From: Treponemataceae bacterium
GTDB lineage: Bacteria; Spirochaetota; Spirochaetia; Treponematales; Treponemataceae
Direction of reading: 5' to 3'
Length of the DNA stretch: 61,604 bases
Assembly (NCBI GenBank): GCA_024685655.1
Contig: JAIKVO010000055.1
Coordinates: 1 to 61,604, forward strand
Within the stretch, counting starts at the first letter, position 1; each line of letters starts with the position of its first letter. The position numbers and the translations under genes were made by a program. The notes under the pieces were generated by a model. The model saw only the letters and a program-made list of their open reading frames with translations. It was not told the origin of the DNA and ran no database searches. Below are positions 1-58,098 of this stretch, piece after piece.

Positions 1-293
1 ATACGACTTCAGTAATAAAAAATGCGAGTTATAAACAAAAGTATGATATTATGAATGGGAAAAAATCAATACATGGTGTATATAAAGAACTACATCCCAA
101 AAAGACAAAAAAGGCACAAATTGATAATAGCAATTTTGAAAACTGTACTACACATGCTGTTGTCGTTGTACTAGATGTTGTTGCTATAAATGTTGTGAAA
201 TAAAATTATATAGACTAATGCACGGTAATAAAGGGAATGAAACAGATAACGGAAAACCTTCTAATTGATTTTGATCAGCTAAAAAACAGTTCC

Positions 294-322
294 TTGACGA
301 AGGGAATTCGGGGTGATAAAAT
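294..322 (+). promoter_or_regulatory. sigma70-type promoter for the small DUF4177-like gene
   Basis: TTGACG (294-299), 17-nt spacer, then TGaTAAAAT (extended -10, hexamer 317-322). A leader of about 60 nt follows, then the SD GGGAGGAG and ATG at 387. Confidence 0.5.
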
Positions 323-351
323 TTGATTATAAGTTATTCGTTGCGGCTTCA

Positions 352-369
352 TGTCGCAACGTTGCGACA
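352..369. promoter_or_regulatory. perfect 18-nt palindrome TGTCGCAACGTTGCGACA in the 5' UTR (possible operator or RNA hairpin)
   Basis: The sequence is its own reverse complement. A third GTTGCG copy at 340-345 could pair alternatively with CGCAAC at 355-360. Confidence 0.35.
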
Positions 370-386
370 AAACAGGGAGGAGATTT

Positions 387-593
387 ATGAAGAAATTTGA
401 GTATATGGGCAGTGCAACGATTAATAAAAAAATAGAAGCAACATATGGTAAATATAATCAACCGAACATTGACGAATTCCTTAATAGATTAGGTGCAGAA
501 GGTTGGGAAATAATGCCTGATCCAAAGTGTGCTGGATATTTTGCAAAACGAGAAATAACTGAGGAGTCTTCTGCAGCACGAAAGCTTCAGTAA
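387..593 (+). CDS. small DUF4177-like protein (68 aa)
   Basis: The ORF track gives 351-593, but the ATG at 387 follows a strong SD (GGGAGGAG) while the ATG at 351 lies inside the palindrome. The motif ...EFLNRLGAEGWEI... resembles the DUF4177 signature, from memory. Confidence 0.55.
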   Translation: MKKFEYMGSATINKKIEATYGKYNQPNIDEFLNRLGAEGWEIMPDPKCAGYFAKREITEESSAARKLQ

Positions 594-634
594 ATAAAAA
601 ATACCGTCAATAAATAACACGTTCGGTCATCCAT

Positions 635-1063
635 CTATCTGTTTATCAAATAGTCAATTCCTTCGATGTAGCCGTCAAAGCCGTGGCCGGTTATTGTTTT
701 ACATGCAAAATAAGAGACGTATGAAACTTGGCGGAACGGCTCGCGTTCAGGTACATTAGAAATATGAACTTCGACAGTGGGTATATTAACGGCTTTAAGA
801 GCGTCAAGAATCGCGACTGATGTATGTGTATATCCGCCCGGATTAAACACGATACCGTCGATTTTATCAAAATAAGCTTGCTGAATGATGTCGATAAGTC
901 CGCCCTCAGAATTGCTTTGCAGACATTTGACGCTGACAGATTTTTCAGTACAATGTTTTTCAATCATTTCAACTAAATCGTTATAAGTCTTTTTTCCGTA
1001 AATATCTGGCTCACGAATGCCAAGCATATTCAAATTCGGGCCGTTAAGGACAAGAAGTTTCAT
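635..1063 (-). CDS. aroQ: type II 3-dehydroquinate dehydratase
   Basis: MKLLVLNGPNLNMLGIREPDIYG and FNPGGYTHTSVAILDAL are the type II dehydroquinase signatures. Confidence 0.95.
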   Translation of the reverse strand: MKLLVLNGPNLNMLGIREPDIYGKKTYNDLVEMIEKHCTEKSVSVKCLQSNSEGGLIDIIQQAYFDKIDGIVFNPGGYTHTSVAILDALKAVNIPTVEVHISNVPEREPFRQVSYVSYFACKTITGHGFDGYIEGIDYLINR

Positions 1064-1066
1064 TTT

Positions 1067-2368
1067 CTAAGAATCTCCTGTTGTTTTGGCGGTTTTCTCT
1101 ATAAGAGAATCTACAAGCGGATCACCGGCTTCAAAGTCTGGTAAATCCCAAGTTTCATCACAAATAGCTTCGTACAAAGGCGACCGCTGTTCAAAAAGTT
1201 TTTCGATGCCGTTGCTTTTGCTTACAGGTCTGTTGCTGACATTTTGCTTTTTTAATGTTTCAAGCGGTCGTTTTATGTAGATAACTTTAGAGTTTGCACG
1301 AAGATAGAAACTGTTTTCTGGTCTTGTGACAATTCCGCCGCCAGTTGCGATGACAAAGCCGGAACGCGGAAGAACTTTCATTGCAAGCTCAGTCTCCATC
1401 GTTCTGAAAGCACCCTCGCCTTTTGTTTTTATGACTTCTGCCGGCGTAACTCCGTATTCTTCTGTGAACGCATCATCAAGGTCTATAAACTGGCGGTTCA
1501 ATGCGTCGGCGAGTTTTTTTCCGATTCGGCTTTTTCCTGAGCCAGGCATGCCAACAAGCGTTATATTCATCATTTCAGATTCAAGAGATTTCGTAACGCG
1601 TTCGATAAGCTCATCTTCTTCTTTTCCTGAAGATTCAAGAGAAAACTTGCCGCCTTTGAAAACGATGCTCGCTTTATATGCCTGCGCTACAAGCATATAA
1701 AGACCTCCGGCATGTTTTACACAAAGTTGTTCGGCTTGTTGCAAAAATCGCGTTCTGGATGGATTGTATACGATATCAGCTGCCGCATAAAGCTTTGGAA
1801 ATCGTGACAAATCGATTGAAGAATCATCGATGTTTGGGAACATTCCAACTGGTGTTGTGTTCACGATGATCTGAGCATCTGATTGCGCTGTGTAAACGTT
1901 TTCGTAATTAATCTCACCGGTTCGGGAGCAAAAATCGATACGAGCAGCACCAAGTTGTTTTAAGGCGTAGTTTATAGCTGCGCTTGCGCCGCCTGTACCT
2001 AAAACAAGACAATTTTTATCATTTACATCGATTTTTGCCTGTCTTAGCATGTATACAAATCCGTACACATCAGTGTTGTAGCCCTTAAAACCGCCGTCTG
2101 GAAGCGCAACGACTGTATTAACCGCCCCTATCGCTTGGGCTTCGTCTGAAAGCTTCTCGCACAAGCTACAGGCAAGTTTTTTATATGGAATCGTTACGTT
2201 AAAACCTTCAAGTTTTTCTTTGCCTTCAAATATCGCACGGACTTCATCTTCAGTTCGCTCTAAAATTGTATATTCATAATTAGCGAATGATTTATGAATT
2301 CGCGGAGAATATGTATGCGGAAGTGATTTTCCTAAAACACCAAACATTATATTTCCTTTGTTTAACAC
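1067..2368 (-). CDS. aroE: bifunctional shikimate dehydrogenase / shikimate kinase (AroE-AroK fusion)
   Basis: The N-terminal half has NVTIPYKK, GAVNTV, GYNTD and the Rossmann motif LGTGGASAAI. The C-terminal ~165 aa has Walker A GMPGSGKS, DLD and TGGGIV, typical of shikimate kinase. The start could instead be the internal Met at 2347. Confidence 0.9.
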   Translation of the reverse strand: MLNKGNIMFGVLGKSLPHTYSPRIHKSFANYEYTILERTEDEVRAIFEGKEKLEGFNVTIPYKKLACSLCEKLSDEAQAIGAVNTVVALPDGGFKGYNTDVYGFVYMLRQAKIDVNDKNCLVLGTGGASAAINYALKQLGAARIDFCSRTGEINYENVYTAQSDAQIIVNTTPVGMFPNIDDSSIDLSRFPKLYAAADIVYNPSRTRFLQQAEQLCVKHAGGLYMLVAQAYKASIVFKGGKFSLESSGKEEDELIERVTKSLESEMMNITLVGMPGSGKSRIGKKLADALNRQFIDLDDAFTEEYGVTPAEVIKTKGEGAFRTMETELAMKVLPRSGFVIATGGGIVTRPENSFYLRANSKVIYIKRPLETLKKQNVSNRPVSKSNGIEKLFEQRSPLYEAICDETWDLPDFEAGDPLVDSLIEKTAKTTGDS

Positions 2369-2371
2369 GAA

Positions 2372-3523
2372 TTAGACAACTTCGTTGTATGAGCCGAGAT
2401 ATCGGAACTCTTTTGTCATTGAATGAAGATCTTCAATCATCTCTGCAAAGCCTTCGTTGTAAATTGATGTTTCCAAATCAAAGTAGAACATGAATTCAAA
2501 CATTCTTCCTGGCAAAGGCCGTGATTCGAGCTTCACGAGGTTTATTCCGCGCGAGTAGAAAAACGCGAGGATTCTGTAAAGAGAACCTGGCTCATGATTA
2601 AGAATCATCATCATTGAGGATCTGTTCGCTCCTGGATAAATCTCCAAATCTTTTGAAATTACGATGAATCTTGTGTAGTTGTTGTCAGAATCTTGTACAG
2701 AGGTTTTCATAATCTCAAGATTATAAAGATCACTGCATCGTTTTGAAGAAAGACAGCATATATCATTTCTTCCTGATGTCGAGACGATTTTAGCGGCTTC
2801 TGCAGTGTTTTGGCAGGCTGTTACTTTGACATCGGGACCAAGACTTTTGATGAATTCGCGGCACTGATTCAAAGCTTGCTCATGCGAAATAACTTCTTTT
2901 ATGTCGCTCATTTTGCTTCCTGGGAGCATAAGGCAGTTGTGATCAACTTTAACCCTGATGGCTCTTACGATTTTGAAATGATGCTGAATCATCTGGTCAT
3001 AAACGGCAGAAACTGTGCCTGCGTTTGAGTTTTCAACAGGAAGAACGCCATATTTACAAAGCCCCGATTCGATCGCAGAGAAAACTTGCGAGAAGTTTTT
3101 CATAAACATGATACTCGGAATCTGGAAGAGTTTTTCGCATGCTTCCTGAGAGAATGCGCCTTCGATTCCCTGACAAGCGACTACAGCTCTTACTGGAAAG
3201 GCTTTTGATGACATTTCTTCAATTACTTTTTCCACTTGTAATGATTCTTCGCTTTTTTCTTGAATCAGTTTGCTTTGAATACTGCGGGATATTTCAAATA
3301 AAAGGGAATAAATAGGAGGAACAAAAGGCTGCGTAAGTTCATCTGCTTTATCGTAAATATCAGAAAGTTTTTCCCGTTCGCGAAGACCGTCATAAATTGG
3401 TTTTCCGCTTGATTTTTTGAAGTTTCCAATTTTTTCAGCGACTCTCATACGCTGTTCCAACGCTTTTAAAAGCGCGTCATCCGCTTTATCCATTTCTTCT
3501 CTTAACTGTGATAAATCTTCCAT
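2372..3523 (-). CDS. pheA: bifunctional chorismate mutase / prephenate dehydratase (P-protein)
   Basis: N-terminal chorismate-mutase helix (LREEMDKADDALLKALEQRMRVAEKIG), a central prephenate dehydratase domain, and a C-terminal ACT domain with LVKLESRPLPG. Confidence 0.9.
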   Translation of the reverse strand: MEDLSQLREEMDKADDALLKALEQRMRVAEKIGNFKKSSGKPIYDGLREREKLSDIYDKADELTQPFVPPIYSLLFEISRSIQSKLIQEKSEESLQVEKVIEEMSSKAFPVRAVVACQGIEGAFSQEACEKLFQIPSIMFMKNFSQVFSAIESGLCKYGVLPVENSNAGTVSAVYDQMIQHHFKIVRAIRVKVDHNCLMLPGSKMSDIKEVISHEQALNQCREFIKSLGPDVKVTACQNTAEAAKIVSTSGRNDICCLSSKRCSDLYNLEIMKTSVQDSDNNYTRFIVISKDLEIYPGANRSSMMMILNHEPGSLYRILAFFYSRGINLVKLESRPLPGRMFEFMFYFDLETSIYNEGFAEMIEDLHSMTKEFRYLGSYNEVV

Positions 3524-3554
3524 AATATCTCCTATTTATTTGCAATAGCAAACT

Positions 3555-4742
3555 TTATATTAAATCAGCAAGTGCGAGTGCGGCGGCGGCTTCATAAACA
3601 GGAACAGCTCGCGGCACAATGCATGGGTCGTGTCTACCATGCACTTTTATTGTTGTGTTTTGTTTGGCGGCCAAGTCAACTGTTTGCTGTTCCATTGCGA
3701 TTGTTGGCGTCGGTTTTACGGCAACGTCAAAAACGATTGGAGCAACAGAGCCGCCAACGCTTATTCCGCCGAGGATTCCGCCGCATCTGTTTGTTTTAAG
3801 ACGGAGCGAAGCATTGTCGCTTGATGAGGCGCGAGCGGTGTCTTCAGTGTTGTGCGAATTGTTGGCAGTGTCAGAAGCATTGTCGGCGAAAACAAGGCTG
3901 TCGTTATTTTGGGAGCCTCTTAAAGCCGCCGCCGCAAAACCGTTACCAAATTCCACGCCTTTACATGCCGGTACTGCAAAACAAATTGAGGCTATTTTAG
4001 CTTCTATGCCTTCAAAAATCGGACCACCGATACCACCCGGTACGCCTTCAATTATAACTTCGATAATGCCGCCAACAGAGTCGTCAGCTGCCCTAGCCTC
4101 CGCGATTTTTTGTTTCATCAAGTTGCCTTTCTCGTCATCAATAACTGGAAAATCTTTTTCTGCAACTTTATGAAGCTTGGAAAAAAATGAGTGGCCAGCG
4201 GGAGAATCTGCCAAATCTGATTGTGCTACGAAACTGTCATAGTACGAAACATCGTTGATTCCAGCAATCGATTTTATATGCGCGCTAATGCGAATCCCTT
4301 TTTCAGCGAGATATGAGAGCGCAAGAAAACCAGCCACACAAAGCGGAGCTGTCAATCTGCCAGAAAAAGATCCTCCGCCTGATGACTTAAAACTTTCGCC
4401 ATATTTGAGCCGAGCTGTAAAATCAGCGTGTCCCGGACGCGGTGTTATCAAAAGATTCGAGTAATCGTGGGGTTTTGTGTTTGTGTTAAGTATATGAGCT
4501 TCGAACAAGCCATTTTTTAGAGTATCAACGATAACGTCGTCGGCTTCTTTTCGCGGAGTTGACCAAGCATTCTGTCCGGGTGCACGCCGTTTCATGAAGT
4601 TTTTTAATGCATCTGTATCAAGCTTTTCGTATTCCAAGCCTTCAAGACGAACGCCAATGCTTTCGCTGTGAGATTCTCCGTATATCCCGATTTTGAGCTT
4701 GTCGCCTTTGAACCAATTATATGTATTATTAGTATTTGTCAT
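3555..4742 (-). CDS. aroC: chorismate synthase, with a low-complexity insertion
   Basis: GESHSESIGVRLEG, RPGHADFTARLKYG and GRHDPCIVPRAVPV. An extra segment ADNASDTANNSHNTEDTARASSSDNAS is absent from canonical enzymes as I recall them. Confidence 0.95.
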   Translation of the reverse strand: MTNTNNTYNWFKGDKLKIGIYGESHSESIGVRLEGLEYEKLDTDALKNFMKRRAPGQNAWSTPRKEADDVIVDTLKNGLFEAHILNTNTKPHDYSNLLITPRPGHADFTARLKYGESFKSSGGGSFSGRLTAPLCVAGFLALSYLAEKGIRISAHIKSIAGINDVSYYDSFVAQSDLADSPAGHSFFSKLHKVAEKDFPVIDDEKGNLMKQKIAEARAADDSVGGIIEVIIEGVPGGIGGPIFEGIEAKIASICFAVPACKGVEFGNGFAAAALRGSQNNDSLVFADNASDTANNSHNTEDTARASSSDNASLRLKTNRCGGILGGISVGGSVAPIVFDVAVKPTPTIAMEQQTVDLAAKQNTTIKVHGRHDPCIVPRAVPVYEAAAALALADLI

Positions 4743-4744
4743 TT

Positions 4745-6244
4745 CTATTCCTTTGTTTCCGCATCCGTAGTTTTTGTCGATTTTTCTATAAGCTCAAAAA
4801 GTCCTGGAAACGATTTGTTGACGCAATCTTTGTTGTCTATGTAAACAGTTTTTCCTGTCCATGCAGCTATAAGACACGCAGTCATCGCCATTCGGTGATC
4901 ACCGAAGGTCTCTATGGAAATATCTGAATCTGTGGGAGTTGTCGCCGCCGCACCACGCATAGAAGCTGAATCGCGCTCAACAGCCGCACTTTGCTTACAA
5001 GCCGCATCGCACATGCAAGGCGAACTGTGCGCAGAAGCGTCGCGTACAGTTGCTATGTCACTCTTACAAAAGCGTCCGCCGTGAATGACAAGCGTTCCGT
5101 CGTGCTCGGCTGCATTTACGCCAACCGCTGCCAAAGCTTTTATTGTAGCTTCTACTCTGTCGCATTCTTTGAATCTGAGCCGCTCAACATTCTTTATTTT
5201 TGTTAGTTTCGTGCGGGCGGCGGCGACAACCGCGATATACGGCACAATATCAGGGTAATCAGAAGCGTCAAGATCCAACTCGTCAACCTGAACCGCAACA
5301 ACCGCAATACTTTCTGCCATGTTTTCAGACGACATCATATCAAGCAAGACACTGTTTCTGCTCCATTCCGTTTTGATTCCGAGTTTTGAAAGAATTTCAA
5401 CAATCACTTTATCTTTTTGAATTGAGTTTTTATTAAGTCCATTAAGCACAATTCGAGACTTTTTTGCGAGAGCACCAAGACAAAGCAAGAACGCTGCACT
5501 AGACCAGTCACATTCTGCAAAGTTTTTATTTTTGCTACGTGCTGTCATATTGTTTATCGTATAAAGGTCGTTTTCTTCATCAAGTTTGATTCCAAATGAT
5601 TCAAGCGTAGAAACGGTAAGTTCAAAATATCCTTTTGATTCGAGCGCGCCAAGAAGTTTAACAGAAGAGTTTGGCAGCAACACAAGTGCCATAAGAAGCC
5701 CAGAAATATACTGTGATGAGATGTTTCCCTGGATTTCGAAAACGCCTTCAGTAAGCTTACCGCTTTCTGTTATTGTTCCAGCCTGTTTGTCTATAACAAC
5801 GCTAACGCCATGAGAATCAAGACATTCAATTAGCTGGTCAAGCGGTCGGTCAATAAGCTTTCCTTTCGGCTGAAAAACAAGACGTTTATTTCCCGAAAGG
5901 CCCTTGTACGAAAGAAATGCTGCTCCGACGCTCATCATGAAGCGAAGCGTGGAACCGCTTTCATTACAAGGCATTATAATATCAGTTTGATTTTGCGCCA
6001 TATCTGCTTCGGATTTTGCCGTGACCGAAGCTTCGTATAATGCTTTTAAGCAACCTCGTGTGGCACGAATATCATCATTATCAGTTGGAAGCGGCTCAAT
6101 AATTTCGCGGATTGCCGCCGTATCTGGTTCAGAAGCAAGCGTTTGCAGTAAAAAACTGATTATAAGCTGCCTGTGAACGACAGATTTTGACGGAGGAACT
6201 GTGAAATCTAGGTTAAGGTTCGGGATATTGACCGCATATTTCAT
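4745..6244 (-). CDS. aroA: 3-phosphoshikimate 1-carboxyvinyltransferase (EPSP synthase), 499 aa with a C-terminal insertion
   Basis: PPSKSVVHRQLI (PGSKS-type N-terminus), FGDHRMAMT near the C-terminus, and its position in the operon. About 45 extra residues (RDASAHSSPCMCDAACKQSAAVERDSASMRGAAATTPTDSD) precede the GDHR motif. Confidence 0.9.
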   Translation of the reverse strand: MKYAVNIPNLNLDFTVPPSKSVVHRQLIISFLLQTLASEPDTAAIREIIEPLPTDNDDIRATRGCLKALYEASVTAKSEADMAQNQTDIIMPCNESGSTLRFMMSVGAAFLSYKGLSGNKRLVFQPKGKLIDRPLDQLIECLDSHGVSVVIDKQAGTITESGKLTEGVFEIQGNISSQYISGLLMALVLLPNSSVKLLGALESKGYFELTVSTLESFGIKLDEENDLYTINNMTARSKNKNFAECDWSSAAFLLCLGALAKKSRIVLNGLNKNSIQKDKVIVEILSKLGIKTEWSRNSVLLDMMSSENMAESIAVVAVQVDELDLDASDYPDIVPYIAVVAAARTKLTKIKNVERLRFKECDRVEATIKALAAVGVNAAEHDGTLVIHGGRFCKSDIATVRDASAHSSPCMCDAACKQSAAVERDSASMRGAAATTPTDSDISIETFGDHRMAMTACLIAAWTGKTVYIDNKDCVNKSFPGLFELIEKSTKTTDAETKE

Positions 6245-7266
6245 AAATATTGACCTAGTTCCTCTATCAGAATTGTTTTAAGCTCACCGTGCCCGATTTT
6301 ATTTATAAGCGCGATTGTAATTTTGCCGCCGCGCTTTTTTTTGTCGTTCATTACGCCTTTCATAATTTGTTCGCTTGTTATCGGGTCGTCAAAAGGAAGC
6401 CCGTATAATTGAAGCATTTCTACAAGTTCGCCGTGTATGGGGCTTGTACGCGTGATGCGCTCCATGCCTTTGGCGACGGCAAAACCATGCGGAACAGTGT
6501 AATTGCTTCGGCTTTCAATAGCATGTCCGATTGTGTGACCAAAGTTCAAAAGCTGACGCAAGCCGTTGTCGTGCTCATCTTGTGCGACAACTTCTGCTTT
6601 TATCCTGATGTTTTGCGCAACAATCTGCTCCAGTTCTGGGGATGATTTCGTTACTTTTTGCCGCAGGGTTTTGTAAAGGCTTTCGTCACGGATGAAAGCA
6701 TGTTTTATGACTTCTGCCATTCCTTCTGTGAAAACGTCATCATCAAGTGAAGATAAAAGGCTTGTATCTGCAATAACGAGCGATGGCTGGTAAAATGAGC
6801 CGACAAGGTTTTTTCCCTGCGGCAAGTCAACACCTGTCTTTCCACCGACGGAAGCATCAACTTGCGCCAAAAGCGATGTCGGTATTTGGAAAACTTTTAT
6901 GCCGCGCAAAAAGATTGATGCGGCGAAACCCGCCATATCAGTAGTAACACCACCACCAAGTGCTACAACGGCATCTGTACGTGTAAAAGCATTTACGGCC
7001 ATCGTTCCAAGAATCTTTGCTATTGTATCAAGATTTTTGCTTTGTTCGCCAGCAGCAAACACAAACTCAAATACCTGAAAACCTGCGTCTGTCAAAGACT
7101 TTTTGAGTTTACTCAAATATAGTTTTTCAACGTTAGAGTCTGTTACAACAAGAAGCTTCTGTATCCCGCTGCATGTGCCTGTTATAAGCTCGCCGCTTTT
7201 TTCAAGCAAGCTGCTGCCAACAAGAACCTCGTATTCTTTTCCTGCTTTTACATGTATCTTTTCCAT
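6241..7266 (-). CDS. aroB: 3-dehydroquinate synthase
   Basis: LGGGVTTDMAGFAAS, GGKTGVD and FGHTIGHAIE. There is a 4-nt overlap with aroA. Confidence 0.95.
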   Translation of the reverse strand: MEKIHVKAGKEYEVLVGSSLLEKSGELITGTCSGIQKLLVVTDSNVEKLYLSKLKKSLTDAGFQVFEFVFAAGEQSKNLDTIAKILGTMAVNAFTRTDAVVALGGGVTTDMAGFAASIFLRGIKVFQIPTSLLAQVDASVGGKTGVDLPQGKNLVGSFYQPSLVIADTSLLSSLDDDVFTEGMAEVIKHAFIRDESLYKTLRQKVTKSSPELEQIVAQNIRIKAEVVAQDEHDNGLRQLLNFGHTIGHAIESRSNYTVPHGFAVAKGMERITRTSPIHGELVEMLQLYGLPFDDPITSEQIMKGVMNDKKKRGGKITIALINKIGHGELKTILIEELGQYL

Positions 7267-7268
7267 TT

Positions 7269-8099
7269 TTAACCGTCCAGCTCAGCCTTTCGCTGGCTTC
7301 CATCTTCCAAAAGCTGCTTAAGTTCGTCTTTGTTGTTGCTTGTCATTGCATCTTTGTATTTAGAAAGTTCAGTTATAAGGCTGTCTATTTCTTTTACAAG
7401 ATTGTCTTTGTTTTCCATAAAAAGCTCTGACCACATCGTAGCATTAAGCCAAGCTACGCGCGTAAGGTCTTTGTAGCTGCCTGCTGAAAACCCGTGATGT
7501 TCCGCTGCAGTCGGGCTTTTTACATAAGCGTTTGAAACTACGTGCGCCAACTGCGAAGTAAAAGCAATCATTTCGTCATGCTTGTCGGCGTGCGAAAGAC
7601 AGAAACTTCCGAATTCAGCTGGAGCCACAGCTTCTTTTACGCGGTCAATAAGCTTCATGTCGTCAAAAGTTTCCGGTACAAGAACAAGCGGTGCGCCTTT
7701 GAACAGCGTGGCTCGAGAGTGCTTCAAACCGGAGTATTTGTTTCCAGCCATAGGATGTGCGCCGACAAAAACAAAGCTATGTTTTTTTGCAATCTTAAAG
7801 CATTCATCGCACACTACCCGCTTTATTCCGCCAGAATCCATTACAAGCCCGCCTTTGCGGAAATTATTCGCATTTTCTTTTACATAGTCGATAGTTGCCT
7901 GCGGGTAAACGCAAATCAGTACTAAATCGCAGTCTTTAAGTTTATCGCTTGTAAGCGTGTCATCAACGAATCCTGCAATTTTTCCCATAAGAATGGCAGA
8001 ATTGTCTATATCATGGACAAGGACAGTCCATCCAGCTTCTTTGTAAGCCTTCGCAAACGACGCGCCTATAAGACCAAGCCCAACAATGCCGACAGTCAC
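7269..8099 (-). CDS. tyrA: prephenate dehydrogenase (GTG start)
   Basis: N-terminal Rossmann motif VGIVGLGLIGASFA and FVGAHPMAG. It abuts the aroF stop codon. Confidence 0.85.
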   Translation of the reverse strand: MTVGIVGLGLIGASFAKAYKEAGWTVLVHDIDNSAILMGKIAGFVDDTLTSDKLKDCDLVLICVYPQATIDYVKENANNFRKGGLVMDSGGIKRVVCDECFKIAKKHSFVFVGAHPMAGNKYSGLKHSRATLFKGAPLVLVPETFDDMKLIDRVKEAVAPAEFGSFCLSHADKHDEMIAFTSQLAHVVSNAYVKSPTAAEHHGFSAGSYKDLTRVAWLNATMWSELFMENKDNLVKEIDSLITELSKYKDAMTSNNKDELKQLLEDGSQRKAELDG

Positions 8100-9098
8100 T
8101 TAAATCACCTCGCGGATTTTCATAACACGTTTTGCTACATCATCAAACTGTGCCGGAGTAAGAGACTGGGCACCGTCACACAACGCTTTTTGAGGATTAT
8201 TGTGAACCTCAATCATAATTCCGTCAGAACCGCAAGCCGCGGCGGCCATTGCCATCGGTTTAACCATGCGGGCAATTCCAGTTGCGTGTGACGGGTCTAC
8301 AATGATTGGAAGATGCGTAAGTTCATGGAGCATTGGAACAGCTGATAAATCAAGAGTATTGCGTGTGTATGTCTCGTAAGTACGGATTCCGCGCTCGCAA
8401 AGAATGACGTTTTCGTTTCCGTTCGCCATAATGTATTCTGCGCTCATAAGAAATTCTTTCATCGTGTTAGCAAGACCGCGTTTAAGAAGAATTGGCTTTT
8501 TTAGCTTCCCTAAATCCTTGAGAAGCTCAAAGTTCTGCATATTGCGAGCGCCCACCTGAATTAAATCTACGTCAGAAAAAAGTGGAAGATGATCGGAACT
8601 CATTATCTCTGTGACAATCGGCATTCCTGTAACTCTTTTTGCCTCAAGTAAAAGCTCAAGTCCTTCTGCCTGAAGTCCCTGGAAATCATACGGAGATGTT
8701 CTTGGCTTAAATGCACCGCCTCGAAGAAGTTTCGCACCGGATGCTTTTACTGCTTTTGCAATATCAATAATCTGATCACGGTTTTCAACAGAACACGGGC
8801 CGGCAATTAGAGCAAAATTTCCGCCTCCAATTTTTACTCCGCTAACGTCAACGATTGTGTCGTCTGGATGGAATTTTCTGTTTGCCTTTTTATATGGTTC
8901 TGATATACGAGTTACAGACTCAATGATATCAAGACCTTTAAGAAGATCGATATCGACTTTTGTTGTATCGCCGACAAGTCCAAGAACAGTCTTGAACTCA
9001 CCTTCTGATATGTGGACTTTTAATCCCTGTGATTTGAACCAGTCGATTAAATTGTTAATCTGCTCTTGGCTAACACCTGATTTTACTACTGCTATCAT
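8100..9098 (-). CDS. aroF: 3-deoxy-7-phosphoheptulonate (DAHP) synthase, type I-beta, with an N-terminal ferredoxin-like regulatory domain
   Basis: LIAGPCSVEN, KPRTSPYDFQGL and VDPSHATG. About 75 aa of extra N-terminal domain resemble the Thermotoga-type DAHPS. The SD AAAGAGGTG precedes the ATG. Confidence 0.9.
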   Translation of the reverse strand: MIAVVKSGVSQEQINNLIDWFKSQGLKVHISEGEFKTVLGLVGDTTKVDIDLLKGLDIIESVTRISEPYKKANRKFHPDDTIVDVSGVKIGGGNFALIAGPCSVENRDQIIDIAKAVKASGAKLLRGGAFKPRTSPYDFQGLQAEGLELLLEAKRVTGMPIVTEIMSSDHLPLFSDVDLIQVGARNMQNFELLKDLGKLKKPILLKRGLANTMKEFLMSAEYIMANGNENVILCERGIRTYETYTRNTLDLSAVPMLHELTHLPIIVDPSHATGIARMVKPMAMAAAACGSDGIMIEVHNNPQKALCDGAQSLTPAQFDDVAKRVMKIREVI

Positions 9099-9129
9099 AA
9101 AAACACCTCTTTATTTACCAATTGAAACC

Positions 9130-9160
9130 AAAAAAAAACCGCCCGGAAGTGACCGTGCGG
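9130..9160 (-). terminator. intrinsic terminator (attenuator) inside the aro operon leader
   Basis: Minus strand reads CCGCACGG-TCACTT-CCGGGCGG (7 G:C pairs, one A/G mismatch) followed by T9 (9138-9130). The aroF ATG lies 31 nt further downstream. Confidence 0.75.
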
Positions 9161-9209
9161 TTTTCTTTACAGTTTACTATTTAGTAACTTATATACCACA
9201 AATCACTTC
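9146..9209 (-). promoter_or_regulatory. candidate antiterminator helix competing with the attenuator
   Basis: GAAGTGA (9209-9203, starting in the leader stop codon) pairs with TCACTTC (9152-9146). TGTGGT (9200-9195) pairs with ACCGCA (9161-9156). That is 13 bp with one wobble and a small internal loop, and it overlaps both arms of the terminator. Confidence 0.45.
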
Positions 9210-9279
9210 AACCCCTACTGTTCGTAAAGTAATAAAATGAGTAAAAGTAAAATGTGTTATAATAAGCGGTAAATGTCAT
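9208..9279 (-). CDS. Phe/Tyr-rich leader peptide MTFTAYYNTFYFYSFYYFTNSRG (23 aa)
   Basis: Read by hand; it is below the ORF-track size cutoff. It has 5 TTT, 3 TAT and 3 TAC codons out of 23. It lies between a good promoter and the attenuator terminator, upstream of the pheA/tyrA-containing operon. Confidence 0.65.
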   Translation of the reverse strand: MTFTAYYNTFYFYSFYYFTNSRG

Positions 9280-9285
9280 GAGCCA

Positions 9286-9314
9286 ATTAAAGCACTATTG
9301 TTTTTTTGTGTCAA
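9286..9314 (-). promoter_or_regulatory. sigma70-type promoter of the aro operon leader
   Basis: TTGACA (9314-9309), 17 nt, then TGcTTTAAT (hexamer 9291-9286). The leader ATG begins 7 nt after the hexamer, at the expected +1 position. Confidence 0.6.
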
Positions 9315-9334
9315 TGGGAAAATGGCACAAAATG

Positions 9335-9360
9335 AAAAAATGTTCTGATATATAAGAACA
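9335..9360 (-). terminator. weak intrinsic terminator after the radical SAM gene
   Basis: Minus strand has TGTTCT-tatatatc-AGAACA followed by T6. The stem is AT-rich, so this is weak. Confidence 0.35.
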
Positions 9361-9381
9361 TATAAGAATGAACACACAGTG

Positions 9382-11967
9382 TTATTTGTCGAAAACCGCC
9401 AGCTCTTGCCGGGCCTTTTTAAGAAAATGTTCATGAAGCGATGCAAGATAAGAGAATCTTTCAAAATAATCCAAAGGTTTTCCATTTTCGTCTCTTGCGA
9501 CCGTTTTTGTCTTAACGATATGAATAATCTTGTGGATTTTCTCTCCAAAAAACTCTGATATCGCGTCGCGCAAAGGTCTGTCGCCTTCAAAACAAACCTT
9601 TACAGAGTATTCGCCATCTTTTATTTTTTGTGCGTAAATCTGATATTTTGCTTTAAGTTCCGAATAAGATGAACAGTTGAAAAAGTCATCTGCATTTTTA
9701 CTATATTGATCTTTGAAGAGATAAATATATTCTGAGCCGTACAATTGAGTTGCAAGAGAAACTCGTTTTTTCTTTCGTGTCACAGGATAGATAATGCATT
9801 TTGTTATTTTGAATTGAGGTGGAAGACAATCATTTAACTTGTTCATAAATATTTCTGGAGTTGTTTCATATCTTAAAAGACATGAACCGATTTCATCAAA
9901 ACTTTCTGTTCCAAGCGAAATACATGTAGCCAGTTCCATACGCGGAACAGGATTGAAGCCGTCCGTGAAGATGATTGGAAGTTCCGTACGTAAGAAAGCT
10001 TTGTGAATCATTTCCTGCATTGCAAGGTGCGGAATAAACTGAGCACCGTTGTTCTTTGTAAAAGAAAAAAGAACCCTGTAAAGAAGCGGGATGTTGTTTT
10101 CTCTTATAGGCGCTGTTGTTATGCAGCTGTTTTTCAAATCTTCAGGCAGTTCGTCAAACTGGTTTTCTACAGAATCTTTATGAACATGTATATTTTTCTG
10201 TACATTGCAGACTCCGCAAGGTGTTTTGCAATGCTCTGAACAGCGGTCTGTAAGCTCTTGGTTCACGGATTTTTCGAATTCTCGTTTAAAAAATACAGGG
10301 CTTGCTCCAAGGCTTATATCGTTCCATGGTAAGATTTCGTCATCAGAACGCTCGCGGGTTACTTCGTGCTCAACATCCCAACCAGCTTCAGAAATCGCTT
10401 CCTGCCACAAATCTTTTCGCATGTGGTCTTCCCAAGCATCCAAGCGGCAACCCTTTTTGAAAGCAGAATAAAACAGATGGCCCGCCCTGCTGTCACCGCG
10501 CGAAATAATACCTTCCACAAACGAAACAAACTCGTCGTGTGTACTGACCTTAAATTTACCGCGCGGAAGCGATTTATGAATAAAAGCCATCTTCTCTTTT
10601 GATTCTTCCATCGTCAGCTGCCGTATGCGCTCATATGGAGTATGCGGTTTTGGAATAAATGTTCCAACGTTCACAGAACACTGAATATGCGTTTTTTCTT
10701 GTATTTCAAGAAGAAAATCGACAATTTCCTGCTCTTCTGTTTTAGGGTTATCCTGCTTTTTTATGTGACGTTCGTCATTAGCAGGAGGAAGTCCGACCAT
10801 AAAGTAAAACTTAGCCTTGCTCCAACCCCTCTTTTTTGCTTCCTCAATAATTTCAATGAGTTTATTCGTGTAAACTTCTTTGTTTACAGAAAGCTGCCAG
10901 GCTTCGGACGGGGTTTCTATGGCAAAAGTAAGTCCGCTTTTTCGGACTTCCGACAGCTTTTCAAGAAGCGGCAGCGTAAAAGTATTTACTTTTAGAGACG
11001 GCAGCTGGAATGAAACATTCGCTTTGGAAAACTTCTTTGTAAGGATATCAAGTAATTTGTCTATACAAGGATAATCGCCTGAAGACAGCGATGTAAGGCT
11101 TATTTCCCTAAAACCGCCTTCTCTGACTAAAGCTTCTGCTTCCTGCAAAATAAATTTCGGGTCTTTTGTCCGCTGTGGCCTGTAGTAAATACCGGCATGA
11201 CAAAAGCGGCATCCGTTCGGGCAGCCGCGCATAATTTCAATTACACCATGATTTTGGACTGGTTTTATCGTAGGTACAGGATAAAAGTTTTTTAATGACG
11301 CATACTGGCCGAACTGCTTGTCAAAAGCTTTCTCTGCTTTTTTACCCGGTATCCAAACATATTTGTTTTGGGCAAGAAGCTCAAGCAACTCTGCTTTTGA
11401 CGCGCCTTCTTTCTTTTTAAGAGCGAGTGTCTCGAAAAGCTTAAAGAATTCGTCTTCTGCTTCCCCTATAAAAACAGCGTCTAAAAAGTCTGTGAAAGGT
11501 GCCGGATTCGTTACGCCACAGCCGCCAGCAATCAGTATTGGGTGAGTTTCATCTCTGTCTTTTTTCAAAGCCGGTATATGAGCTGCTTCAAGTATTGTAA
11601 ACATTCCTGTAATGCCAAGCTCATAACCGATAGAAAAACCTATACAGTCGGCTTCGTAAAGAGGGATTCCTGTTTCAAGTGAAAAAAGCGGTATGTTCCG
11701 CTCTTTAAGAAGCTCTTCAAAATCTGTATCGGGTGCAAAAACGCGCTCACAACGTACGTATGGACTTTTATTCAATCCGTTATAAAGAATATGAACAGCC
11801 TGATTGCTCATTCCTATTTCATATAAATCCGGAAAAGCCATTACAAAAGTAAAAGGAACTGAATCATCTTTTACGGTCTGGCCGTATTCTCCGCCTAAAT
11901 AACGAGAAGGAGCCTGAACATCAAGAAGCGCGTCACCGAATATTTCCAAGGGATTTATATGAGTCAT
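9382..11967 (-). CDS. B12-binding-domain radical SAM protein fused to a DUF2344-type radical-SAM-linked domain (TIGR03960 + TIGR03936 architecture, from memory)
   Basis: The CxxxCxxC motif occurs in MRGCPNGCRFCHAG. At 861 aa it is about the length of the two families combined. The gene follows rodA after 43 nt. Confidence 0.8.
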   Translation of the reverse strand: MTHINPLEIFGDALLDVQAPSRYLGGEYGQTVKDDSVPFTFVMAFPDLYEIGMSNQAVHILYNGLNKSPYVRCERVFAPDTDFEELLKERNIPLFSLETGIPLYEADCIGFSIGYELGITGMFTILEAAHIPALKKDRDETHPILIAGGCGVTNPAPFTDFLDAVFIGEAEDEFFKLFETLALKKKEGASKAELLELLAQNKYVWIPGKKAEKAFDKQFGQYASLKNFYPVPTIKPVQNHGVIEIMRGCPNGCRFCHAGIYYRPQRTKDPKFILQEAEALVREGGFREISLTSLSSGDYPCIDKLLDILTKKFSKANVSFQLPSLKVNTFTLPLLEKLSEVRKSGLTFAIETPSEAWQLSVNKEVYTNKLIEIIEEAKKRGWSKAKFYFMVGLPPANDERHIKKQDNPKTEEQEIVDFLLEIQEKTHIQCSVNVGTFIPKPHTPYERIRQLTMEESKEKMAFIHKSLPRGKFKVSTHDEFVSFVEGIISRGDSRAGHLFYSAFKKGCRLDAWEDHMRKDLWQEAISEAGWDVEHEVTRERSDDEILPWNDISLGASPVFFKREFEKSVNQELTDRCSEHCKTPCGVCNVQKNIHVHKDSVENQFDELPEDLKNSCITTAPIRENNIPLLYRVLFSFTKNNGAQFIPHLAMQEMIHKAFLRTELPIIFTDGFNPVPRMELATCISLGTESFDEIGSCLLRYETTPEIFMNKLNDCLPPQFKITKCIIYPVTRKKKRVSLATQLYGSEYIYLFKDQYSKNADDFFNCSSYSELKAKYQIYAQKIKDGEYSVKVCFEGDRPLRDAISEFFGEKIHKIIHIVKTKTVARDENGKPLDYFERFSYLASLHEHFLKKARQELAVFDK

Positions 11968-18749: not shown

Positions 18750-18771
18750 TTTCCCCACCCATATAAAAACA

Positions 18772-19153
18772 GAAGCAAAAATAAGCCGGGTTCTGTCACA
18801 AGATATCTGCGCAATCGGCAAAAAACTTGCTAAAACCATCTATCCTGTATGCAACTTTCGCTGCATATCCAGCGGACTACCCGTAACGGTGCATCATACA
18901 ATGCTTTTCGGCGTTCCGTTACTGCTTGTCCTTGCTCCAGATGAGGTTTGCCTTGCAGCTTTTGTTACCAAAAGCCCGGTGAGCTCTTACCTCACCTTTT
19001 CACCCTTACCGTTTAAGGCGGTCTATTTTCTGTGGCACTGTCTGTCAGGATTTTCACCTGCCCGGTAATTACCCGGCATCTTTTCCGAAGGAGCCCGGAC
19101 TTTCCTCATCCATGCAATGAAAACTCAAAGCATGGATACGGTTTTTTTGCCCC
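18772..19153 (-). ncRNA. rnpB: RNase P RNA, bacterial type A
   Basis: Minus strand carries GAGGAAAGTCCGGGCTCC (P4/CR-I), AGGGTGAAAAGGTGAGGTAAGAGCTCACC (P10-P12) and ACAGAACCCGGCTTA (CR-V). The terminal pairing is GGGGCAAAAA / TTTTTGCTTC. Ends are approximate, within a few nt. Confidence 0.9.
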
Positions 19154-19157
19154 TGAA

Positions 19158-26458: not shown

Positions 26459-26494
26459 AAAAAAAAAGGTGTTGATAAAGAATATCAACACCTT
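26459..26494 (-). terminator. strong intrinsic terminator after the tRNA pair
   Basis: GGTGTTGATA (26468-26477) pairs with TATCAACACC (26483-26492), loop AAGAA. On the minus strand a T9 run follows (26467-26459). Confidence 0.85.
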
Positions 26495-26576
26495 TGGGCA
26501 GAGAAGGATTCGAACCTTCGAAGGCGGAACCAACAGATTTACAGTCTGCCCCCTTTGACCACTCGGGAACCTGCCC
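26495..26576 (-). tRNA. tRNA-Tyr (GUA), long variable arm
   Basis: Minus strand reads GGGCAGGTTCCCGAGTGGTCAAAGGGGGCAGACTGTAAATCTGT...GGTTCGAATCCTTCTCTGCCCA. The anticodon loop is CTGTAAA. No CCA is encoded. Confidence 0.88.
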
Positions 26577-26592
26577 ATGTATTCATTACTAA

Positions 26593-26666
26593 AGCCAACT
26601 TAGGGATTCGAACCCTAGACCCCGAGATTACAAATCACGTGCTCTGGCCAGCTGAGCTAAGTTGGC
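26593..26666 (-). tRNA. tRNA-Thr (UGU)
   Basis: Minus strand reads GCCAACTTAGCTCAGCTGGCCAGAGCACGTGATTTGTAATCTCGGGGTCTAGGGTTCGAATCCCTAAGTTGGCT. The anticodon loop is TTTGTAA. There is one U-U mismatch in the anticodon stem. Confidence 0.85.
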
Positions 26667-26744: not shown

Positions 26745-28355
26745 TTATTTTTCTGTCGGCTCAATAAGATTTTCGTAAAGCGGGATATATTCGTTCTGAA
26801 CGACTTGTTTCCATGAATATATAGTATGTACATACTGAGCGGCGGCAGACATCATTTCATCAAAAGCAGAGCTGTTCTCATGTTTTTTTTGCGCAATAGA
26901 CACGATAAGCTCAGAAAGAGTTTCCGAGTCGTTCGGACTAAAAAGGAACCCTGTTTCTCCGTTTTTTATCTTTTTGAGTCCGCCAGTACCATGTGCAATC
27001 GGTATTGTGCCATAAATAGACGCTATGAAATCCTCCAAACCGCACGGCTCAAAAAAACTTGGCAGCACAATAAAATCAGATGCAGCTACGCAAAGCCGCG
27101 CAAGCGTTTTTTCATAACCGCGCAAAAAAAGAACTTTACCAGGAAATTGTTCTGTCAACGCAATCTGTTTGTTCTCTAATTCCTGTGCTCCTTGCCCTGT
27201 GATAATAAACCTTGAGTATGGACATTGCTTTAAAACCTTTGGAATAGCACCTGCCCATATATCTATACCCTTTTGGTGGACTATTCTGCCATGATACGAA
27301 AAATAAACACAATCCGGCTTAGCGTCAATAAAACCGAACTGATCTACACCAGAAGTTATTGAGTGTATACTTTTTTTCATCCTGGAGCCGTGGTCATTTC
27401 TTGAGTAATAATCCATAAAAAGATCACGAGATTTATATTTTCCGGTGAAAATGTGTTTTTCGGGAGAGAATGGGAACGGAAGCATCGATATGGCTGTGTT
27501 TTCTGGATTGTATTTTTCGTAGTCGATTCCGTTTGTTATTCCTGTGATTTTTATTTTTTTATTGTAAAAAAGCTTTGAAAGCCCATCCGTATTTGCATTC
27601 TCCGGGTCCATAAGCTCATCGGCGTACCACGGAGAAACTGTCGTCAAGTATGAATAGAAGCCTGCAAGCAAGTACGGCTCAATAAAATCTCCACGCCTGC
27701 CTTTTTCAAGAACTTTAACAGGAAGATCCGTATAATTCACGGCTTCTTTCAACGAAGGAAATTCGTGATGGTAAGCGGGACCTGCATTGTGAATTGTTAC
27801 TACGAAACGGGTGTTTCCTGCCAGCTCCTCGTATTGCGGAAGTTCTGATGCAAATACTGGAATAAGCGCAGTTGTGGCATCGTGACAGTGAATTATATCA
27901 GGGAATTCCGAAAAATGGACGGCGTAATCAAGCACCGCTTTTTGAAAAAGAGTCTCCAGAAGAGGTGCGTCAATGTGGCCTTGTCCGCGTATATGCGACG
28001 GTGTTATCCGTTCCTCAAGTTCCGTATACGTATAGATATTCATCTTCTCAATAAAATGCGATGAAATGATGAATATCACTTTGATTTTGTCACAATACGC
28101 ACGACCGTAGGAAACTTTATATTCGGATCCGGCTACTGTTATGTATGACGTATAATCAGAAACTATGTCAAAATCTTTAATTGAGGCTAAGTTCGTGCAT
28201 CCGTATAGTGGAATAAAAAGCGTAACTTCATTCTCATCTTCAACAAGTTGTTCTGAAAGCGAACATACAACATTCTTAACACCGCCGGCTTCGGCAATTC
28301 CGGCATACTCTCTGCTTATCTGCCATACATTAAGTTTTCGCAATTTGACTGACAT
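26745..28355 (-). CDS. divergent GT5 glycogen/starch synthase-like glycosyltransferase
   Basis: The C-terminal half has FFEPCGLEDF...GTIPIAHGTGGL...GETGFLF, typical of GlgA. The N-terminal motif is EAGGVKNV rather than KTGGLADV. Confidence 0.7.
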   Translation of the reverse strand: MSVKLRKLNVWQISREYAGIAEAGGVKNVVCSLSEQLVEDENEVTLFIPLYGCTNLASIKDFDIVSDYTSYITVAGSEYKVSYGRAYCDKIKVIFIISSHFIEKMNIYTYTELEERITPSHIRGQGHIDAPLLETLFQKAVLDYAVHFSEFPDIIHCHDATTALIPVFASELPQYEELAGNTRFVVTIHNAGPAYHHEFPSLKEAVNYTDLPVKVLEKGRRGDFIEPYLLAGFYSYLTTVSPWYADELMDPENANTDGLSKLFYNKKIKITGITNGIDYEKYNPENTAISMLPFPFSPEKHIFTGKYKSRDLFMDYYSRNDHGSRMKKSIHSITSGVDQFGFIDAKPDCVYFSYHGRIVHQKGIDIWAGAIPKVLKQCPYSRFIITGQGAQELENKQIALTEQFPGKVLFLRGYEKTLARLCVAASDFIVLPSFFEPCGLEDFIASIYGTIPIAHGTGGLKKIKNGETGFLFSPNDSETLSELIVSIAQKKHENSSAFDEMMSAAAQYVHTIYSWKQVVQNEYIPLYENLIEPTEK

Positions 28356-56622: not shown

Positions 56623-58098
56623 CTATTTGATGATTTTTGCCTGTGCACGTTTGTATACATCTTCATACTTCTGGGCTGAGACATCCCAGCCGAATTTTTG
56701 CTTCATTCCCCGTATACGCATAGCTTTTATATGCGCAGGCTTATTATACCAAGCGTATACAGCCCATCCGGCAGTGTCGAATATACTGTTCGGCGTAAGA
56801 TCATCAAATACGAAGCCAGTTCCTTTGCCGGTTGCTTCATCGTAATTGGAGACAGTATCGGCGAGCCCGCCAGTACGTCGTACAATAGGAAGCGTACCGT
56901 AAATAAGTGAATACATCTGATTCAAACCGCACGGCTCATAACGAGAAGGCATCATGAAAAAGTCACTTCCTGCCTCAATAAGGTGACTTAAAGAATCGTT
57001 GTAACCTATAAAAGCACGGAAATTCGGAAGTTTTGATTGCAGAATGTTTATTTCATTCTCACACCATGATTCACCAGAGCCTAGCACTACAAACTGAATG
57101 TTCATCTGTGTGCACATACGATACGCGCATCCGTATGTAGGAGCAAAAAGCTCCGCCACTCCTTTCTGATCAGCAAGACGAGTTATTATGCCGAACAGAG
57201 GAACGGACGGATTTACTTCCAGCCCCATTTTCTCTTGTAACGCAAGTTTGTTCTGTAGCTTTTTTTCTATAGAGGACGCACTGTACTGTACGGGAATCTT
57301 CTTATCTTTTAATGGATTCCAGACATTTGTATCTACACCGTTCAAGATACCTTCCAAATCATCATTGCGATTTCGAAGTATTCCATCCATTCTGAAACCG
57401 TACTCGCTACGTTGTATCTCTTTTGCATACGTTGGCGAGACAGTCGTTAGCATATCAGAAGAAACAAGACCCGCTTTAAGGAAATTCACATTATCGTAAT
57501 CTTCAAAACCAGCTGAATAAAAATGGCACCAATCAAGACCGAAAAATGGATAATTTTGTTTGCCATAAATTCCCTGGTATCCAAGATTATGTATAGTTAA
57601 TACGCTTGCTGTATGAGAAAACTCTTCATGATATCGTTCATTGAATTTTAACAGAACAGGCGCAAGTGATGCAGACCAGTCATGAGCATGAATAATATCA
57701 GGATACCATCCTAACTTACGGCAAAGCTGGAAAACTGAATGACACAGAATTGAAAAACGTCGCGGATTATCTGAAAAATCGGGCTCTTGATGTGTACCGT
57801 AAATACCGTCCCTACCAAAACTTTGCTCATGATCAATAAAATATACCGGAATATTCTTTGCTCCTGGTAAATTTGATGTATAAACAGCTGTCCAAACTTC
57901 GTCATTACCACAGTGAACGCACATAGGACCATCGAGAAGCCGCAGGTTATCCCTAGAAATTCTATAATATCTTGGCATAATGATACGTACATCGTGACCT
58001 AGTTTCTCAAGCTCTATGGACAATGCAGATACGGCATCTGCAAGTCCGCCTGTTTTTGCGAAAGGAACAGCTTCCGAAGTAACCATCAGTATTCTCAT
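56623..58098 (-). CDS. glgA: glycogen synthase (ADP-glucose type)
   Basis: MRILMVTSEAVPFAKTGGLADAV and PSRYEPCGLNQMYSLIYGTLPIVRRTGGLADTV. Confidence 0.95.
   Translation of the reverse strand: MRILMVTSEAVPFAKTGGLADAVSALSIELEKLGHDVRIIMPRYYRISRDNLRLLDGPMCVHCGNDEVWTAVYTSNLPGAKNIPVYFIDHEQSFGRDGIYGTHQEPDFSDNPRRFSILCHSVFQLCRKLGWYPDIIHAHDWSASLAPVLLKFNERYHEEFSHTASVLTIHNLGYQGIYGKQNYPFFGLDWCHFYSAGFEDYDNVNFLKAGLVSSDMLTTVSPTYAKEIQRSEYGFRMDGILRNRNDDLEGILNGVDTNVWNPLKDKKIPVQYSASSIEKKLQNKLALQEKMGLEVNPSVPLFGIITRLADQKGVAELFAPTYGCAYRMCTQMNIQFVVLGSGESWCENEINILQSKLPNFRAFIGYNDSLSHLIEAGSDFFMMPSRYEPCGLNQMYSLIYGTLPIVRRTGGLADTVSNYDEATGKGTGFVFDDLTPNSIFDTAGWAVYAWYNKPAHIKAMRIRGMKQKFGWDVSAQKYEDVYKRAQAKIIK

Follow-up and report, generated by a model that had tools for sequence, protein, structure and literature searches.

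A predicted Phe/Tyr leader-peptide attenuator upstream of the aroF operon of a rumen spirochaete

[quoted passage not shown] Here a related element is described from contig JAIKVO010000055.1 of a Treponemataceae bacterium (61,604 nucleotides; the whole stretch analysed is called the window), where it precedes an eight-gene aromatic amino acid operon. The closest described system is uORF-13, found from Clostridium novyi and represented by 336 examples in Firmicutes (Bacillales, Clostridiales, Thermoanaerobacterales and Negativicutes) and metagenomes (Stav et al. 2019, BMC Microbiol 19:66, PMC6429828). About half of these precede aroF, which is followed by tyrA, and the motif combines a P1 stem, a terminator stem and a short ORF whose F-Y-F core is conserved; it was read as a trp-like attenuator and reported together with the related uORF-12 (PMC6429828). 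uORFC-13-1 (Brewer et al. 2021, RNA Biol 18:2417, PMC8632094), with 24 examples from Acholeplasma and environmental sequences, is found exclusively upstream of aroF. Its features are -35 and -10 elements, a start codon and Phe codons, with a terminator adjoining; attenuation by ribosome speed was proposed for it. The DAHP-synthase operon of Corynebacterium glutamicum is preceded by aroR, a leader peptide with Phe-Tyr-Phe (Neshat et al. 2014, as recounted in PMC11802643), and in that secondary account read-through increases under Phe limitation while Tyr supply is reportedly without effect. Stav et al. set aroR apart from uORF-12 and uORF-13 in both structure and phylogeny (PMC6429828). In Deinococcus deserti, 14 leaderless leader peptides have been predicted (PMC4007540).

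The window element shares with uORF-13 its position upstream of aroF with tyrA in the operon, and the F-Y-F core has its counterpart in the FYFY and FYYF runs of the leader, which are followed by a terminator; P1 overlaps the last Y-F codons, an overlap also seen in Clostridial leaders. Collected Clostridial aroF leaders fit the description of uORF-13, and a model built from those leaders recognises the window at 54 bits. Feature by feature, from the published description and not from its model, we infer that the element is a member of uORF-13. The two differ in that the reported range of uORF-13 is Firmicutes and environmental sequences, whereas the window host is a spirochaete, nearest to rumen Treponema metagenome-assembled genomes (MAGs). 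The uORF-13 pipeline required a ribosome-binding site, but the window copy has none and looks leaderless. The antiterminator pairing documented below for the window family is not described for uORF-13 in PMC6429828. uORFC-13-1 is also upstream of aroF with promoter elements, a start codon, Phe codons and a terminator; compared by description only, it is unlike the window in its ribosome-binding site, U-rich sequence, at least one Phe codon and narrow taxonomic range. C. glutamicum aroR is the experimentally supported counterpart and likewise places an F/Y leader before a DAHP-synthase operon, but it is actinobacterial and has three aromatic residues only.

The four-segment logic is that of E. 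coli pheL-pheA (RF01859) and trpL, with the codons in segment 1, the stop codon by segment 2, and 2:3 pairing opposed to 3:4 pairing. pheL has Phe codons only and controls pheA alone, whereas the window leader has Phe and Tyr codons and precedes genes of the common pathway and both branches. The window is not a member of the Rfam family Phe_leader RF01859 (24.8 bits, E = 0.09, versus a gathering threshold of 55; mostly terminator and U-rich signal). As in the leaderless leaders of D. deserti, for which attenuation of amino acid genes is predicted, the start codon would coincide with the transcription start and no Shine-Dalgarno (SD) sequence is present; those leaders belong to another phylum, are unrelated in sequence, and the transcription start in the window is deduced from promoter spacing. 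A literature search found no report of aromatic leader-peptide attenuation in spirochaetes. The novelty for spirochaetes suggested in the original prediction, which was made from the sequence of the window, has to be qualified by the kind of element, which is already known in Firmicutes, Acholeplasma and C. glutamicum. The attenuation mechanism itself is textbook; what looks new here is the spirochaete host, probably reached via operon transfer, and the apparently leaderless layout.

The element is very probably a classical ribosome-mediated transcription attenuator with a Phe/Tyr leader peptide, predicted from sequence and folding models to sense charged tRNA-Phe and tRNA-Tyr and to govern aroF-tyrA-aroB-aroA-aroC-pheA-aroE/K-aroQ. 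It lies on the minus strand in a 283-nt intergenic region flanked by a radical SAM gene (9382-11967) and aroF (9098-8100). The promoter, the 23-codon ORF, the hairpin with its T-tract and the SD and ATG of aroF, all named in the original prediction, are present (Table 1), and its codon counts are right. Five TTT, three TAT and three TAC codons make 11 of the 23 codons Phe or Tyr, and codons 10-18 include eight aromatic codons in nine. The hairpin had been placed one base too high, the 5' arm really being 9160-9153, and the prediction had missed that the leader ATG, at the expected transcription start, has no SD. An earlier leader start is excluded by an in-frame TAG 18 nt upstream of the ATG. 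When the 283-nt intergenic region was shuffled with dinucleotides preserved, a run of at least 8/9 F/Y/W codons in an ORF of 10-45 codons arose in 9 of 20,000 shuffles. The total of 11 aromatic codons is unremarkable alone in T-rich DNA (matched by 1208 of 20,000).

Table 1. Features of the predicted attenuator and of the operon behind it (positions in the window).
Feature	Position	Strand	Description	Basis
Putative sigma-70 promoter	9286-9314	-	-35 TTGACA 9314-9309; 17-nt spacer ending TGc (extended -10); -10 TTTAAT 9291-9286	sequence reading
Leader-peptide ORF	9208-9279	-	MTFTAYYNTFYFYSFYYFTNSRG; ATG 9279-9277, 23 codons, stop TGA 9210-9208	
Regulatory codon run	9226-9252	-	F Y F Y S F Y Y F, codons 10-18	
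Small hairpin P1	9215-9232	-	UUACU 9232-9228 (inside codons Y17-F18) with AGUAG 9219-9215	
Segment 2, antiterminator 5' strand	9196-9209	-	GAAGUGAUUUGUGG; begins with the middle base of the leader stop codon	
Segment 3	9146-9160	-	CCGCACGGUCACUUC; terminator 5' arm, loop and first base of 3' arm; common to antiterminator and terminator	
Intrinsic terminator	9130-9160	-	5' arm CCGCACGG 9160-9153; loop TCACTT 9152-9147; 3' arm CCGGGCGG 9146-9139; T9 9138-9130	
Regulated operon	635-9110	-	SD GAGGTG 9109-9104; aroF 9098-8100, tyrA, aroB, aroA, aroC, pheA (chorismate mutase-prephenate dehydratase, CM-PDT), aroE-aroK fusion, aroQ	Pfam

The terminator begins 47 nt past the leader stop codon, and its T9 tract ends 31 nt ahead of the aroF ATG (9098). 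Its stem has eight positions, of which seven are paired, with a 6-nt loop and an A-tract on the 5' side. The stem alone has an energy of -10.5 kcal/mol, and -14.9 kcal/mol with the A/U extension. The antiterminator is formed by 9209-9196 with 9160-9146 (14 bp with one bulged C) and is mutually exclusive with the terminator. It is at least as stable, both as a duplex against the terminator stem (-14.1 versus -10.5 kcal/mol) and in the local folds (-18.6 versus -14.9 kcal/mol). This bears out the mutual exclusion of the two helices in the original prediction; an antiterminator far weaker than the terminator, which would have told against that prediction, is not seen. In the minimum free energy fold, flanking pairs lengthen P1 into a 1:2 hairpin of -21.1 kcal/mol in which leader codons pair with segment 2. 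The 184-nt RNA folds with -50.7 kcal/mol, compared with -32.1 +/- 3.6 kcal/mol in shuffled sequences (z = -5.1), and none of 200 shuffles was as stable.

Folding with a masking ribosome was carried out on a transcript cut just before the 3' arm of the terminator, and on the full leader. On the cut transcript, the probability of the antiterminator was 0.07 with no ribosome and 0.94-0.98 with the ribosomal A site at any of codons 2-17. It was 0.46 with the ribosome at codon 18 and 0.12 at codon 21, and dropped to 0 at codon 23/stop. The effect that had been proposed for a ribosome at the stop codon, as against one stalled on the F/Y codons, is thus reproduced by the model (0 versus 0.94-0.98). 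In silico, the geometry fits a three-state logic in which a ribosome at the stop codon hides segment 2 and a stalled ribosome frees it.

As we infer them, the start of transcription, the translation of the leader and the response to amino acid supply would be as follows. Transcription would start on the A of the leader AUG or on a neighbouring base, and the ribosome would probably load on this leaderless 5' AUG. With ample Phe and Tyr, the ribosome would reach the UGA and cover segment 2 (9209-9196); segment 3 would then pair with segment 4, the terminator would form and the transcript would end in the T9 tract, at about 9130-9138. When Phe or Tyr is low, the ribosome would stall at the F/Y codons (9252-9226), open the 1:2 hairpin and free segment 2, which would pair with segment 3 ahead of the synthesis of the terminator 3' arm, so that RNA polymerase would continue into aroF. 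If the leader is not translated, the 1:2 hairpin would sequester segment 2 and termination would follow by default. With such a scheme, an operon of eight aromatic amino acid genes in an uncultured rumen spirochaete would gain a well-defined mode of regulation.

Related loci were collected by an aroF-based scan with one genome per species, in which the best 80 loci were considered, and a metagenome scan was added. Three of the 80 (L001, L002 and L012) are rumen MAGs whose titles carry the label Treponema sp., with AroF identities of 89-92%; the remaining 77 are nearly all Clostridia and other Firmicutes. The metagenome scan adds L081 and L082 (92%) and L083 (99%). Looked up as exact proteins, the AroF of the window has no record, and its MreB is recorded from metagenome assemblies only. 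The leader is alignable between the window and all six of these Treponema-type relatives. In all of them the -35 TTGACA is unchanged and a -10-like hexamer stands at the same spacing, as it does in a further metagenome locus, L087. The mini-ORF is in frame in all six with its F/Y content kept (MKGNFYYSAYYYYSYYATGKGSK, MNKVYFSAYYSYSYYYCKCRG and MKGNFYYATFYYYSYWFASGKSEK are examples); ORF indels are mostly multiples of three, and F and Y exchange freely. The leader stop codon lies at the 5' edge of segment 2 in every relative. A compensatory double change is seen in the antiterminator, where AAGUGAU/AUCACUU in the window, L083 and L012 becomes AAGUAAU/AUUACUU in L001, L002, L081 and L082. The terminator is kept in all relatives, and in L012 the stem is a perfect 8 bp through a C-to-U and a G-to-U change. 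Few substitutions separate the window from L083 and none falls in an F/Y codon; codons, frame, stop position and the three helices are intact in both. The original prediction had looked to relatives for a conserved mini-ORF with its F/Y codons and for compensatory changes, and both are found among these six. The L081 leader (1332-1477, MKGNFYYATFYYYSYWFASGKSEK) has a Trp codon; Trp otherwise makes up 0.5% of leader residues.

The wider family was surveyed by one automatic procedure applied to 158 loci with a mapped aroF start, which contain 149 distinct upstream regions, mostly from Clostridia. A mini-ORF with at least 5/9 F/Y/W codons together with a terminator of -8 kcal/mol or better was found at 102 of the 158 loci. 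ORFs with at least 6/9 F/Y/W codons occur in 84 of the 149 distinct upstream regions on the sense strand, versus one on the antisense strand. In 78 distinct leaders, Y and F are the commonest residues (17% each), and W is rare (0.5%). The peptides are conserved in F/Y composition only, while length, flanking residues and the order of F and Y vary freely. The best upstream partner of the terminator 5' arm and loop usually lies on or adjoins the leader stop codon. The terminator arm pairs with its own segment at -13.6 kcal/mol versus -9.7 kcal/mol with the segments of other loci, and none of 10,000 permutations reached the observed mean, a difference to which correlated G+C could contribute. The core common to the window and a subgroup reads UAUUACUUUAC ... 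AGUAAGGNUAAUUUGUG ... GCCGCACAGGUUA..CCUGUGCGG.

Covariation in the antiterminator was followed in a gap-free alignment of 22 sequences and 13 positions, with segment 3 left-justified from the conserved CACAG anchor. MAFFT columns were not used here because the gaps placed by MAFFT in the terminator loop were inconsistent. The pairs are 89% canonical, compared with 38-44% in slid registers. When partners were exchanged between sequences, 79 +/- 1.5% were canonical and none of 5000 permutations reached the observed value. Several of the columns switch among A-U, G-C, C-G and U-A. RNAalifold applied to 16 non-Treponema (Clostridial) sequences gives a conserved 5-bp P1 (UUACU/AGUAA) and a 12-bp terminator. 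Compensatory changes are present in 9 of these 17 pairs, all nine in the terminator helix; P1 is conserved without covariation.

A covariance model, R1, was trained on these 16 Clostridial leaders only, with a shortened calibration that makes its E-values rough. Its single significant match in the whole window is 9130-9279 on the minus strand, at full length, with 54.4 bits and E of about 8e-11. At all six Treponema-type loci R1 reaches 47-55 bits. It also matches 38 further loci outside the training set, in every case in sense orientation and immediately upstream of aroF. A single-sequence nhmmer search with the window leader gave significant matches to Treponema-type loci only (L087 at E = 0.32), and was too weak to relate the leader to those of Clostridia, for which the covariance model was required. 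Rfam 15 was searched with the window, with 8900-9600 at an E-value limit of 10 and with 16 related loci; no family reached threshold and, over the same ranges, there was no match to a T-box or known riboswitch. Sub-threshold matches to small-RNA models in the region are weak and terminator-driven. The comparative set, some 100 loci together with a usable covariance model and a covarying antiterminator helix, would suffice for curation of the family.

The operon behind the leader contains pheA and tyrA besides the shikimate genes and no trp genes by Pfam, as originally proposed, and the aroF product is a DAHP synthase with an N-terminal FXD domain (Pfam). The order aroF-tyrA-aroB-aroA stands behind the same leader in most related loci and is the rule in Clostridial ones. 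AroF is 75-79% identical to proteins of Ruminococcus and Acutalibacteraceae, and Treponema accounts for three species only among the best 80 species-level AroF matches. The Treponema loci have different upstream neighbours, and only L083 shares the radical SAM gene. G+C content is 0.436-0.438 in 3001-9000 of the window (aroC to aroF), versus 0.36-0.40 in most neighbouring 3-kb bins; in 1-3000, at the distal end of the operon, it is 0.39. By itself this contrast is a weak hint that the operon was acquired. Taken together, AroF identities, shared gene order, differing upstream neighbours and G+C suggest a transfer of operon and attenuator, in one direction or the other, between rumen Treponema and Clostridia. 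A Firmicute attenuator family, so far without an Rfam entry, would thereby extend to a second phylum, the regulatory RNA having probably moved with its genes.

The start signals of the leader differ among the Treponema-type loci. In L001, L002, L012, L081 and L082, a GGAG stands 6 nt ahead of a TTG leader start. In the window and L083 this segment of about 19 nt is absent, and an ATG start lies 6 nt after the -10 element instead. The leader mRNA is probably leaderless, because the ATG is 6 nt from the -10 element and no SD precedes it, and the recurrence of this layout points the same way. The arrangement TTGACA, 17-18 nt, -10, 6-7 nt, ATG, with no SD, is also present in L087, L031, L033, L037 and L095, and its recurrence in five other loci favours a working design; a leaderless leader peptide thus seems to recur in the aroF attenuator family. 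A wider proposal can be built on this: the attenuator would have accompanied the aroF-tyrA operon in its passage between Clostridia and rumen Treponema and would work here as a leaderless leader peptide, with polymerase starting at the A of the AUG and the sensing ribosome loading on the SD-less 5'-terminal AUG, and the conversion to this arrangement would have arisen, or would persist, in five or more family lineages. As a whole this proposal is tentative, and we would put it slightly short of an even chance. If true, SD-independent loading would be a recurrent, selected design that couples the first ribosome to the polymerase. The recurrent placing of the promoter against the AUG also offers a natural system in which to ask whether leaderless initiation can drive the coupling of transcription and translation in attenuation.

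In L031, L033, L037 and L095, which belong to other lineages, the -10 element is exactly 6 nt before the SD-less leader ATG. L087 (1260-1450, metagenome contig Ga0310694_10001782) has the promoter of the window (TTGACA, 17 nt, TGnTTTAAT) 7 nt before its SD-less leader ATG. The aroB of L087 is 59% identical to that of the window and is its best non-Treponema match; L087 might represent a lineage resembling the donor, or else a remote spirochaete.

Several observations weigh against a functional attenuator at this locus. The -10 hexamer TTTAAT does not have the most conserved A at position 2, and for this reason the promoter was overlooked by a simple promoter scan; a normal RpoD is encoded in the window. 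The terminator stem of the window genome contains one A.G mismatch, because of which a simple terminator scan overlooked the hairpin. The leader ATG has no SD, so translation would hinge on the putative leaderless start. At equilibrium the full-length leader favours the terminator in every ribosome state (probability of at least 0.76), and the switch must therefore be kinetic, as in the trp attenuator. The equilibrium fold of the masked full leader was discarded as a model, as the choice precedes the existence of the 3' arm. Across the 102 loci, a measure of pairing of the terminator 5' arm gave a moderate mean effect (0.72 with a stalled ribosome, 0.60 with none, 0.54 at the stop). This generic occupancy measure was dropped as noisy, and duplex cross-pairing and the anchored column count were used instead.

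The most serious of the other explanations is that the leader is a decayed or non-translated relic, which came with the transferred aroF operon, lost its SD, and now acts as a constitutive partial terminator or is bypassed. The missing GGAG segment in the window and L083, the imperfect -10 element and the termination predicted by the fold without a ribosome would all agree with this. Decay is nevertheless difficult to reconcile with the comparison between the window and L083: both keep their F/Y codons, frame, stop position and all three helices, and the substitutions between them spare every F/Y codon. The start codon is also ATG here, compared with TTG in the SD-bearing relatives, and AUG is what a 5'-terminal start should require; the promoter stands against the ATG in five further loci as well. 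An untranslated leader would, moreover, silence an eight-gene biosynthetic operon. A relic is improbable on these grounds. That the whole arrangement is a chance ORF in T-rich DNA beside an ordinary terminator or a small-RNA gene would be in keeping with a region that is 40% T, with the 6% of shuffles that reach 11 aromatic codons, and with the weak, terminator-driven resemblance to several small-RNA models below threshold. The 8/9 aromatic run is far rarer in the same shuffles, and conservation, covariation, the covariance-model match and the invariable position of the element, in sense orientation and immediately upstream of aroF, effectively refute coincidence, which is the least credible of the explanations considered.

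Ribosome-mediated attenuation has also to be set against other ways of working the switch. In Firmicutes, T-box or TRAP-type control of aromatic amino acid genes is common, and the RNA is strongly structured; an RNA-binding protein, uncharged tRNA in a T-box-like manner or a small molecule acting on a riboswitch might set the switch, the F/Y ORF being incidental. No T-box, riboswitch or protein-binding leader family reached threshold in the window or the 16 related loci, however, and there is no conserved structure of aptamer size, only the 5-bp P1 and the terminator. What distant homologues do conserve is F/Y codons and frame (84 sense versus one antisense), with the antiterminator strand consistently at or adjoining the ORF stop codon. 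Control of this sort is very unlikely. Nascent chains rich in aromatic residues can interact with the exit tunnel of the ribosome, so a TnaC-like arrest, in which the nascent peptide stalls the ribosome in answer to free Phe or Tyr and the stall is not due to a shortage of charged tRNA, has a general basis, with nothing specific to it in this analysis. Its logic would be inverted, as ample amino acid would cause stalling and read-through, which is senseless for a biosynthetic operon, and the peptides are not conserved beyond their F/Y composition. Arrest is rated slightly lower again than control by a protein, tRNA or small molecule.

Some further features of the operon and its surroundings were recorded. 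The aroA ORF (4745-6244, minus strand) encodes 499 residues, of which residues 10-402 match the 5-enolpyruvylshikimate-3-phosphate (EPSP) synthase family of Pfam; about 95 C-terminal residues lie outside the match. The aroE-aroK fusion is a 433-aa ORF (1067-2368, minus strand) that joins a shikimate dehydrogenase N-terminal domain to shikimate kinase. Behind the upstream radical SAM gene, a candidate terminator was found at 9334-9361 on the minus strand (AUGUUCU, 8-nt loop, AGAACAU, U6). It is weak (-7.4 kcal/mol over a 71-nt region, z = -1.4), and read-through from the radical SAM gene into the leader promoter region may therefore occur. The window also encodes tRNA-Tyr(GTA) at 26494-26577 and tRNA-Thr(TGT) at 26593-26666, both on the minus strand, which were listed with a class A RNase P RNA at 18766-19155 (minus strand, 265 bits); a lone tRNA-Tyr species would decode the leader TAT and TAC codons alike. 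Two ORFs resemble glycogen synthase: 56623-58098 (minus strand) is a clear GlgA at 526 bits, and 26745-28355 (minus strand) is a divergent paralogue, with 245 bits against a cut-off of 328.

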